Shown here piece after piece: positions 34,521 through 39,253 of a DNA stretch of 64,000 nucleotides. The translations under genes were made by a program, and so were the position numbers. How positions within the stretch are numbered: position 1 is the first letter of the stretch; each line of letters opens with the position of its first letter. This DNA is from Escherichia coli (lineage in GTDB: Bacteria; Pseudomonadota; Gammaproteobacteria; Enterobacterales; Enterobacteriaceae), in assembly GCF_046105845.1 (NCBI RefSeq), contig NZ_CP151004.1; one strand, given 5' to 3'. Below the pieces are notes generated by a model, which saw only the letters and a list, made by a program, of their open reading frames with translations, was not told where the DNA came from and did not search any database.

Positions 34521-34927
34521 GTGAAAAGGTGGTGTTCAGTCAACTGAGCCGTAAATTTATTGATGAGAACGATGCCACGCCCGCCGAGGCGCAGCAGGTG
34601 GTCTATTACAGCCTGGCGATTGGTCACCACCTTGGGGTTATCGATTGCCTGGAAGCGGCGCTCACCTGTCCGTGGGATGAATATCTGGCATGGATTGCCA
34701 CTCTGGAGGCGGGCAGCGAAGCCCGCCGCAAAATGGAAGGCGTGCCGAAATATGGTGAGATCGTCATCGACATTAACCATGTGCCGATGCTGGCCAACGC
34801 ATTCGATAAAGCCCGGGCAGCGCAAACTTCGCAGCAGAAGGAATGGAGTACAATGCTGTTAAGTATGCTGCATGATATTTATCAGGAAAACGCCATCTAT
34901 TTGATGGTGAGGAGATTGCGTGACTGA
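34517..34927 (+). CDS. hycH: Formate hydrogenlyase maturation protein HycH
   Basis: 136-aa [41 protein letters not shown]…. Confidence 0.9.
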
Positions 34928-35390
34928 CGTTTTACTCTGTGTTGGCAATAGCATGATGGGCGATGATGGCGCAGGCCCGCTACTGGCGGAAAAGTGCGCC
35001 GCCGCGCCGAAAGGTCACTGGGTGGTGATTGACGGCGGTAGTGCACCGGAAAACGACATTGTCGCTATTCGCGAACTGCGCCCTACGCGACTGCTGATTG
35101 TCGACGCCACTGATATGGGGCTAAACCCCGGCGAGATCCGCATCATCGACCCGGATGACATCGCCGAGATGTTTATGATGACTACCCATAACATGCCGTT
35201 GAACTACCTTATCGACCAGTTGAAAGAAGATATTGGCGAAGTGATTTTCCTCGGCATCCAGCCGGATATCGTCGGCTTTTACTACCCGATGACCCAGCCG
35301 ATTAAAGATGCGGTGGAAACCGTTTATCAACGACTGGAAGGCTGGGAAGGGAATGGCGGATTCGCGCAGTTAGCGGTGGAAGAAGAGTAG
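34920..35390 (+). CDS. hycI: Hydrogenase 3 maturation endopeptidase HycI
   Basis: 156-aa [28 protein letters not shown]…, recognised as HycI. Confidence 0.92.
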   Translation: MTDVLLCVGNSMMGDDGAGPLLAEKCAAAPKGHWVVIDGGSAPENDIVAIRELRPTRLLIVDATDMGLNPGEIRIIDPDDIAEMFMMTTHNMPLNYLIDQLKEDIGEVIFLGIQPDIVGFYYPMTQPIKDAVETVYQRLEGWEGNGGFAQLAVEEE

Positions 35391-35446
35391 TTCGTAGACA
35401 AACATGTTCACGTTTTGGAATTTGGACGTGCAATTGTGACGTGTAG

Positions 35447-35475
35447 ACGGGTGTTTACATATTGTGAACACCCGT
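35447..35475. promoter_or_regulatory. Inverted repeat upstream of the toxin gene (candidate antitoxin operator, or hycI terminator hairpin)
   Basis: ACGGGTGTT-N11-AACACCCGT (9-bp arms) 80-110 nt upstream of the higB-like ATG; further TGTGAACA/TGTTCAC-like copies at about 35403..35412; no T-run follows. Confidence 0.3.
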
Positions 35476-35556
35476 GTGATCAACTACTATAGAAAAATAA
35501 ATCCGAAGGAATGGTAGTCCAGGTTTAGTCATTCAGGCGCTAATAAGGAAGTTAAA

Positions 35557-35868
35557 ATGCACATCATTTCTAAAGCGCCATTTGAAGAGTGTGCGCGCAA
35601 ATATCCTAACGACGCTCTGGCTCTACACTCATTGTATCGGGTTATTAAGGAAACGGATTTTTCTACACCAGAAGAAATGCGAACGGCGTTTCCCAACCTC
35701 GACAATTTTAGATATCGCAACAAATGGTACGTTCTGGATGTCGGCGGGAACAATCTTAGGGTTATTGCCTACATAAACTTTGTTAATAAGCGGTTCTTTG
35801 TGAAGCACATAACGAATCACGCAGAGTATGACAAACTGACACGTTACTACAGAGAGAACAAAGAATGA
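35557..35868 (+). CDS. HigB-family (RelE/ParE superfamily) type II toxin, mRNA interferase
   Basis: 103-aa ORF MHIISKAPFEECARKYPNDALALHSLYRVIKETDFSTPEEMRTAFPNLDNFRYRNKWYVLDVGGNNLRVIAYINF…HAEYD…; shares the MH.I…KYP…FP.LDNF.Y…YV..VGGN.LRV…H.EYD pattern with E. coli HigB but is clearly a different sequence; AAGGAAG ribosome-binding site. Confidence 0.8.
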   Translation: MHIISKAPFEECARKYPNDALALHSLYRVIKETDFSTPEEMRTAFPNLDNFRYRNKWYVLDVGGNNLRVIAYINFVNKRFFVKHITNHAEYDKLTRYYRENKE

Positions 35869-36284
35869 CTGCTAATGCTGCACGCGCTGTTAAAGCAACA
35901 AGAGAACTGGTCAATGCAGTCCCCTTTCTGGGAGGTAGTGACTCAGAAGATGATTATCGTGAAGCACTGGAACTGGTCGAATATTTGATTGAAGAAGATG
36001 ACACCAATCCACTTATCGACTTTCTGGCGAGCCGCATTGCAGAATATGAAAACAACAACGAAAAGTTTGCCGAGTTCGACAAAGCCGTTGCAGCAATGCC
36101 GGTTGGCGTGGCGTTACTTCGTACGCTGATTGATCAACATAATCTGACCTATGCGGATTTGAAGAACGAAATCGGCTCTAAATCCCTGGTCAGTCAGATT
36201 TTGTCTGGACAACGATCCCTGACGATATCCCATATTAAGGCACTTTCAGCCCGATTTGGCGTTAAGCCGGAATGGTTTCTTTGA
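35865..36284 (+). CDS. HigA-family antitoxin (C-terminal XRE helix-turn-helix)
   Basis: 139-aa ORF overlapping the toxin stop by 4 nt (ATGA); C-terminal …IGSKSLVSQILSGQRSLTISHIKALSARFGVKPEWFL is HigA-like. Confidence 0.8.
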   Translation: MTANAARAVKATRELVNAVPFLGGSDSEDDYREALELVEYLIEEDDTNPLIDFLASRIAEYENNNEKFAEFDKAVAAMPVGVALLRTLIDQHNLTYADLKNEIGSKSLVSQILSGQRSLTISHIKALSARFGVKPEWFL

Positions 36285-36310
36285 TTTTGACTGATGCCAA
36301 ACGCCAGATT

Positions 36311-36335
36311 GCCCGATGCGCAACGCTTATCGGGC
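36311..36335. repeat. REP-like palindromic element
   Basis: GCCCGATGCGCAACGCTTATCGGGC (7-bp arms GCCCGAT/ATCGGGC) between the higA-like stop and the convergent ascB stop. Confidence 0.4.
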
Positions 36336-36362
36336 TTTCCTGGTTAGTGCGACAGTAGTTAC

Positions 36363-39253
<2,891 letters not shown>

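Follow-up and report, generated by a model that had tools for sequence, protein, structure and literature searches.

A conserved palindrome upstream of a chromosomal higBA toxin-antitoxin pair in Escherichia coli is a probable operator for HigA

We analysed a 64-kb stretch of Escherichia coli DNA (64,000 nucleotides of contig NZ_CP151004.1, assembly GCF_046105845.1), which we refer to as the window. Between hycI and ascB, the window contains a toxin-antitoxin cassette made up of two genes, higB and higA, in that order (Table 1). The RefSeq annotation names the product of the first gene a "type II toxin-antitoxin system HigB family toxin" and that of the second a helix-turn-helix protein. When the antitoxin was compared with proteins of known structure, it matched the structures of HigA from E. 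coli K-12 (PDB 5IFG, 6JQ4, 6KML and others) with an E-value of 2.5e-35 and 47% identity. Because of this match, we regard the window pair, as judged from its protein sequence, as paralogues of K-12 higBA (also known as ygjNM). In our literature search, we found no paper on the hycI-ascB copy of higBA or on its proteins.

Table 1. Features of the hycI-ascB interval in the window
Feature	Position	Strand	Basis or remark
hycI (last gene of the hyc operon)	34920..35390	+	PF01750; RefSeq annotation
Half-site-like 7-mers TGTTCAC (35405-35411) and ATTGTGA (35433-35439)	35405..35439		Probably non-functional
Full extended palindrome, ACGGGTGTTTACA-TAT-TGTGAACACCCGT	35447..35475		Repeat finder: 13-nt arms, 92% complementary
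O1 operator core, GTTTACA-TAT-TGTGAAC, predicted HigA dimer site	35453..35469		Motif match and conservation
Predicted -35 hexamer TTGTGA, made by the O1 centre and right arm	35462..35467	+	Permissive scan
Predicted -10 hexamer TACTAT	35485..35490	+	Permissive scan; invariant in 7 E. coli alleles
higB Shine-Dalgarno AAGGAAG	35543..35549	+	Read from sequence; kept in the window and G3/10 alleles
higB (RelE-like toxin, 103 aa)	35557..35868	+	PF09907 HigB_toxin, E = 9.4e-23; RefSeq annotation
higA (antitoxin, 139 aa, C-terminal helix-turn-helix)	35865..36284	+	PF01381 HTH_3
ascB	36363-37799	-	

The cassette is not a fixed part of the E. coli chromosome; 919 of 5,426 complete genomes contain most of it. 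The upstream region of the window type was found in 343 genomes, where it occurs as a single copy and is chromosomal without exception. EPEC strain E2348/69 carries the window allele at 98% identity. More generally, the hycI-ascB spacer is polymorphic across the species, and four forms were seen: an empty site, as in K-12 and O157; a 253-aa ORF between hycI and higB together with higBA, as in strain G3/10; higBA alone, as in the window; and a truncated ORF together with an orphan higA, with the operator, the promoter and higB deleted. The K-12 "empty" site resembles a deletion scar, as the bases that begin and end the 253-aa ORF are still there, together with an ACTGA junction. In the G3/10-type strains, the product of this ORF has an N-terminus that resembles a signal peptide (MNIRTGMCAFLLSLVLPAQA...), and a Pfam search with it returned no match. 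In one strain, IS621 adjoins higA. On the 3' side of higA, the window carries a REP-like palindrome, tgcccgatgcgcaacgcttatcgggc (36290-36340), which is shared with the empty sites of K-12 and O157 and which gives a weak, sub-threshold match to naRNA4 (15.5 bits).

The initial annotation had pointed to an inverted repeat in the hycI-higB interval, made up of 9-bp arms separated by 11 nt. Both of the stretches that it named, ACGGGTGTT (35447-35455) and AACACCCGT (35467-35475), are present as it claimed, and the repeat therefore stands. The geometry does not, as these stretches are the outer parts of a palindrome that is better described as a 7-N3-7 core extended to 13-N3-13. The full palindrome begins 57 nt after the hycI stop codon, and it has a 3-nt centre and a single imperfection, a T:G opposition. 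Palindromes of this size, defined by 13-nt arms with no more than one mismatch and no more than 11 nt between them, occupy six distinct places in the 64-kb window, whereas 30 shuffles that preserved dinucleotides contained 0.27 on average. The palindrome at 35447-35475 is real and goes beyond chance. When up to 3 mismatches were allowed, the core 19-mer was found at no second place in the window. We rejected the idea that the palindrome is a REP/BIME element or another dispersed extragenic palindrome, because it occupies one place per genome in 343 genomes and has no second copy in the window.

The core of the palindrome, which we denote O1, spans 17 bp and consists of two 7-bp half-sites around a 3-bp centre, so that positions 35453-35469 form a dyad with half-sites one helical turn apart. 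O1 matches GTTYACANNNTGTRAAC exactly, and is the sole such match in the window. The single mismatch between its half-sites falls at a position that varies between T and C across the family of related loci described below. From the start of O1 to the higB ATG is a distance of 104 nt. A search of the window for a second operator, again with up to 3 mismatches allowed, found none, leaving only O1; a two-operator layout is the usual feature of such loci rather than a strict one, and relatives with a single site do exist.

O1 overlaps a predicted promoter hexamer directly upstream of higB. The combination TTGTGA-N17-TACTAT was the top plus-strand match of a permissive scan, agreeing with the consensus at 8 of 12 positions. 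Transcription would be expected to start at about 35496-35499. At default stringency, the scan made no call in the intergenic region of the window, as 8/12 lies below its threshold. In two relatives, the same tool does call a promoter at the homologous position: TTGTGA-N17-TATAGT in G3/10 (9/12), and TTGTAA-N17-TATAAT, with an extended TG, on a Klebsiella plasmid (10/12). The -35 hexamer is made up of the O1 centre and right arm in both. These homologous calls, together with the overlap in the window, bear out the earlier proposal that the palindrome sits at the promoter of the toxin-antitoxin pair. We could not say the same of the "additional TGTGAACA/TGTTCAC-like copies" that had been proposed alongside it, which occur at the level expected by chance and are not conserved. 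In shuffles of a 166-bp interval, the expected number of 7-mer pairs is about 1.0 on average for direct pairs and 1.8 for inverted pairs. Neither TGTTCAC nor ATTGTGA makes a full site at up to 3 mismatches, and both were rejected as operators. In a minor E. coli clade, TGTTCAC is changed to TATTCAC.

A comparison of two E. coli alleles shows how the core has fared in evolution. Starting 14 nt ahead of the higB start codon and continuing downstream, the window and G3/10 sequences agree at 93% of positions. Upstream of higB, blastn recovered only one block shared between them, GTGTTTACATATTGTGAAC, which is identical at 19 of 19 positions and is centred on the O1 core, and the flanks of the two alleles are roughly half identical.

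Orthologues of the window higBA, with HigA proteins 75-82% identical, are found in Leclercia, Mangrovibacter, Kluyvera, Citrobacter, Yokenella, Phytobacter and Pluralibacter, in a scan that sampled one genome per species. None of the orthologous pairs adjoins hycI or ascB, and the flanking sequences upstream of them can be sorted into several groups that are unrelated to one another. Nevertheless, the motif is kept upstream of the orthologous higBA where these flanks have diverged. In 11 orthologous loci, there are two palindromes before higB, O1 (GTTyACA-TAT-TGTAAAC) and O2 (GTTyACA-TAA-TGTAAAC), the starts of which are exactly 38 bp apart, and a -10-like hexamer (TATAGT, TATCAT or TAGAGT) lies immediately 5' of O2. 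The usual arrangement is thus one in which O1 lies over the -35 hexamer and O2 abuts the -10 hexamer. Across the 11 loci, O1 and O2 are invariant or nearly so, while the intervening and surrounding DNA is variable. Taken over the family, the operator motif can be written as GTTyACA-N3-TGTrAAC.

The same motif is found on mobile elements. We found 2,517 plasmid records matching HigA, 513 of them at 60-80% identity and mainly from Klebsiella. On plasmids of Klebsiella and Enterobacter, the clade to which the window higBA belongs is very common. The two plasmid loci that we inspected, from Klebsiella and Enterobacter, have both O1 and O2, and the higBA copy of the 94-kb Cronobacter phage JK004 has O2 only. 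When the plasmid and chromosomal orthologues (Klebsiella IncFIB/HI1B plasmids, Enterobacter plasmids, Leclercia, Mangrovibacter, Kluyvera and others) are set against the window, they share with it the HigA protein at 75-82% identity with a near-identical helix-turn-helix, the O1 motif at the -35 position, and a spacing of 17 nt between the -35 and -10 hexamers. They differ from it in keeping O2 directly after the -10 hexamer, which the window lacks; in having a short leader, with 73 nt from the start of O1 to the ATG rather than 104 nt; and in having neither the new Shine-Dalgarno sequence nor the extended palindrome arms of the window.

In a metagenome collection, the exact 17-mer was matched 82 times. 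For 39 of these matches, which represent 21 of 54 distinct contexts, a higB homologue follows on the same strand at a distance of 27-111 nt; some of these homologues are only 30-60% identical to the window toxin. The remaining matches are scattered, which is consistent with chance occurrences for a collection of this size. One of them straddles the junction between a CRISPR-like repeat, which ends in ...CCCCGCTCGCGCGGGGTTTAC, and the spacer that follows, a coincidence that is unrelated to higBA. Some environmental higBA pairs, with HigB 44-56% and HigA 31-46% identical, have the 17-mer directly after a -10-like hexamer and 27-34 nt before the start codon. Two metagenome contigs contain two copies of the 17-mer, placed 36 bp apart. 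With the environmental 17-mer standing upstream of such diverged higBA, the DNA specificity of the motif appears to be far older and better conserved than the proteins as a whole.

The part of HigA that would read the DNA is conserved along with the motif. Among the orthologues that share the motif, the window included, residues 101-139 (the helix-turn-helix) differ by two or three substitutions, whereas K-12 HigA differs from window HigA at several positions within this region. The cognate helix-turn-helix antitoxin is encoded in the operon that carries the motif.

Given these comparisons, we propose that the core at 35453-35469 is O1, an operator of the higBA operon and the site of HigA autorepression, and we give this reading a probability of about 85%. 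We favour a protein-binding operator because four independent comparisons agree, namely those among E. coli alleles, orthologues, plasmid and phage copies, and metagenomes. A HigA dimer, either alone or as part of a HigB-(HigA)2-HigB complex, would bind both 7-bp half-sites by means of the helix-turn-helix domains at its C-termini, with the half-site centres 10 bp apart and so separated by one turn of the helix. Because O1 overlaps the -35 hexamer of a weak predicted sigma-70 promoter, bound HigA would exclude RNA polymerase, and higB-higA would be repressed. Loss of the labile antitoxin would then relieve the repression. For the window locus, we take K-12 HigBA and Salmonella SehAB as the models from which we infer HigA binding, repression of the promoter, the start of transcription and a dependence on Lon. 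Motif conservation and the identity of the genes thus lend comparative support to the original suggestion that the palindrome is the autoregulatory operator of a helix-turn-helix antitoxin.

O2 has decayed between hycI and ascB in E. coli, and O1 alone remains. What is left of O2 in G3/10 is still legible past the -10 hexamer, with its left arm interrupted and the TGTAAAC arm deleted, and in the window allele even this remnant is gone. The leader has become longer in both E. coli alleles and now includes a strong Shine-Dalgarno sequence. With one of the two family operators missing, repression at the window locus may be weaker than in its relatives, or may be organised differently.

A known relative of the window pair is higBA of K-12, the promoter of which has been mapped by primer extension and is repressed by HigA, with induction that depends on Lon (PMC2814082). 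In our search of the open-access literature, we found no paper that gives the sequence of the K-12 HigA operator, and we read the K-12 palindromes directly from NC_000913.3. There, on the minus strand, CCGTTGCCA-ATC-TGGCAACGG lies over the -35 region of higBA, and ATTGCCA-ATT-TGTCAAC stands next to the -10 hexamer, at a distance of 31 nt from the ATG. K-12 and window higBA are alike in being toxin-first operons with an antitoxin of 138/139 aa, composed of an N-terminal dimerisation domain and a C-terminal helix-turn-helix. In the K-12 operon, as in the window family, the palindromes are built around a centre of 3 bp; one covers the -35 hexamer and the other borders the -10 hexamer at about 31-35 nt from the ATG, and GTTnnCA is common to the half-sites. 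There are several differences, however. The half-site is GTTGCCA in K-12 and GTTyACA in the window, so that 2 of 7 positions differ; the operator cores are 29 bp apart in K-12 versus 38 bp in the window clade; and the -35 hexamer falls in the O1 left arm in K-12 but in the centre and right arm in the window. Compared with K-12, the window has also lost O2 and gained a 6-bp extension on each arm.

A second relative is SehAB of Salmonella, which represents a third paralogue clade; a Salmonella Xre-family antitoxin is 44.7% identical to window HigA. SehAB, a HigBA-type system autoregulated by SehB, resembles the window pair in the domain order of its antitoxin. SehB has been reported to bind DNA with two palindromes at the -35 and -10 boxes (PMC7160566); the original 2013 report on SehAB (PMC3868539) is marked as retracted, and we placed no weight on it.

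One part of the palindrome is left over by the operator reading. The outer six pairs of each arm (ACGGGT / ACCCGT) belong to the window-type allele only and are absent from G3/10, and we found no such extension in any of the orthologues, plasmid copies or metagenomic relatives compared. Even within E. coli, the outer arm is imperfect (ACTCGT) in a minor clade. Six further complementary pairs would be expected by chance at about one site in 4,000. The extension lies outside the family motif and is not explained by HigA binding; most simply, it would be a lineage-specific addition, possibly the product of a template-switch "palindrome correction". To the left of the core, the window and G3/10 are similar (ACGGGT versus ACAAGT), whereas the five bases to the right of it are all different (ACCCG versus TTGGA). 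This pattern fits a template switch in which the right flank was rewritten from the left, and is suggestive but weak: because the surrounding DNA is about half identical anyway, the argument is not a strong one.

An alternative to the operator, or a function besides it, would be for the palindrome to act as an RNA hairpin at the 3' end of the hyc mRNA, where it could terminate transcription, cause a pause or protect the message, and insulate higBA from read-through induced by formate. The hairpin is indeed strong on the plus strand, with a predicted energy of -21.5 kcal/mol (z = -5.0), compared with -15.2 kcal/mol on the minus strand; the plus strand is the stronger because the imperfection becomes a G:U pair. 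Two C-to-T changes in the right arm, seen in a minor clade of five genomes and in WL297, likewise give G:U pairs. Three of three changes are thus compatible with wobble pairing, but chance alone would produce this about once in 8 times, and with only three events the result is not significant. It is also the case that the extension exists only in the allele in which higBA directly follows hycI, and that REP palindromes lie in the same intergenic region of K-12.

Several observations argue against an RNA-level role of this kind. The window hairpin resembles a Rho-independent terminator in being a stable, G+C-containing stem-loop and in its place just behind the final gene of an operon. Unlike one, it is followed by GTGATCAACTAC rather than by a U-rich tract directly after the stem, and its core is conserved in positions where a terminator would not stand; a terminator scan made no call. 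The absence of a T-run, which the initial annotation had noted, holds on both strands, and the hycI terminator that it offered as an alternative lacks support as the main role of the element. Furthermore, the part of the palindrome that is conserved is its AU-rich 7-bp core, which recurs in unrelated contexts and also at O2, downstream of the -10 hexamer. Because of this recurrence, we favour a protein-binding DNA motif over a structure of the hyc 3' end. What is conserved is the sequence itself, and not pairing maintained through compensatory changes. Finally, an Rfam search of 35200-36500, taken to E-values of up to 10, found nothing at the palindrome. We therefore consider an RNA-level function unlikely; a structure of the hyc 3' end, or a barrier to read-through, is possible as an addition to the operator but unsupported as its main function.

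Such an addition could account for the extension. On this speculative proposal, to which we give little credence, the extension would have arisen through a template switch at the quasi-palindrome of the operator, and would have been retained since a 13-bp RNA hairpin 57 nt past hycI would block or trim read-through from the formate-induced hyc operon. If true, a single DNA element would combine a protein operator with an RNA insulator, and would leave the toxin operon under the control of HigA alone.

It could also be argued that the palindrome has no function, and that it is a chance product, or the product of a template switch, in a decaying cassette. Decay of the cassette is plain enough, as O2 has been lost and many E. 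coli strains are missing higB, the promoter or the entire cassette, and the outer arms do vary within the species. Set against this are the 19/19 identity of the core between alleles with roughly half-identical flanks, its exact match to the family operator, and the rarity of palindromes of such size in shuffled sequence, which together make the absence of any function very improbable. Still harder to credit is a site for another regulator, such as CRP, through the TGTGA in the right arm, or FNR, through TGATCAA at 35477-35483, that would place higBA under carbon or anaerobic control, as the motif travels with higBA through many hosts and contexts. For CRP in particular, no match to TGTGA-N6-TCACA was found in 35391-35556 at up to 2 mismatches, and we rejected such a site.

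That type II toxin-antitoxin operons are autorepressed at palindromes in their promoters is textbook knowledge, and the conceptual gain from one more example is accordingly small. The window operator, to judge from its sequence, belongs to this well-known class of antitoxin operators, with the K-12 HigA operator as its closest relative. What the analysis adds is a definition of the motif, GTTyACA-N3-TGTrAAC, for a large HigBA clade. This clade is represented on the chromosome of roughly one in six E. coli genomes, and very commonly on plasmids of Klebsiella and Enterobacter. The analysis also shows that the E. coli copy retains just one of two ancestral operators. The two-base difference between the K-12 and window half-sites also provides a natural pair for studying how paralogues that reside in the same cell avoid cross-regulation. 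The differences in half-site and in helix-turn-helix may serve to insulate the K-12 and window paralogues from each other where they share a cell.
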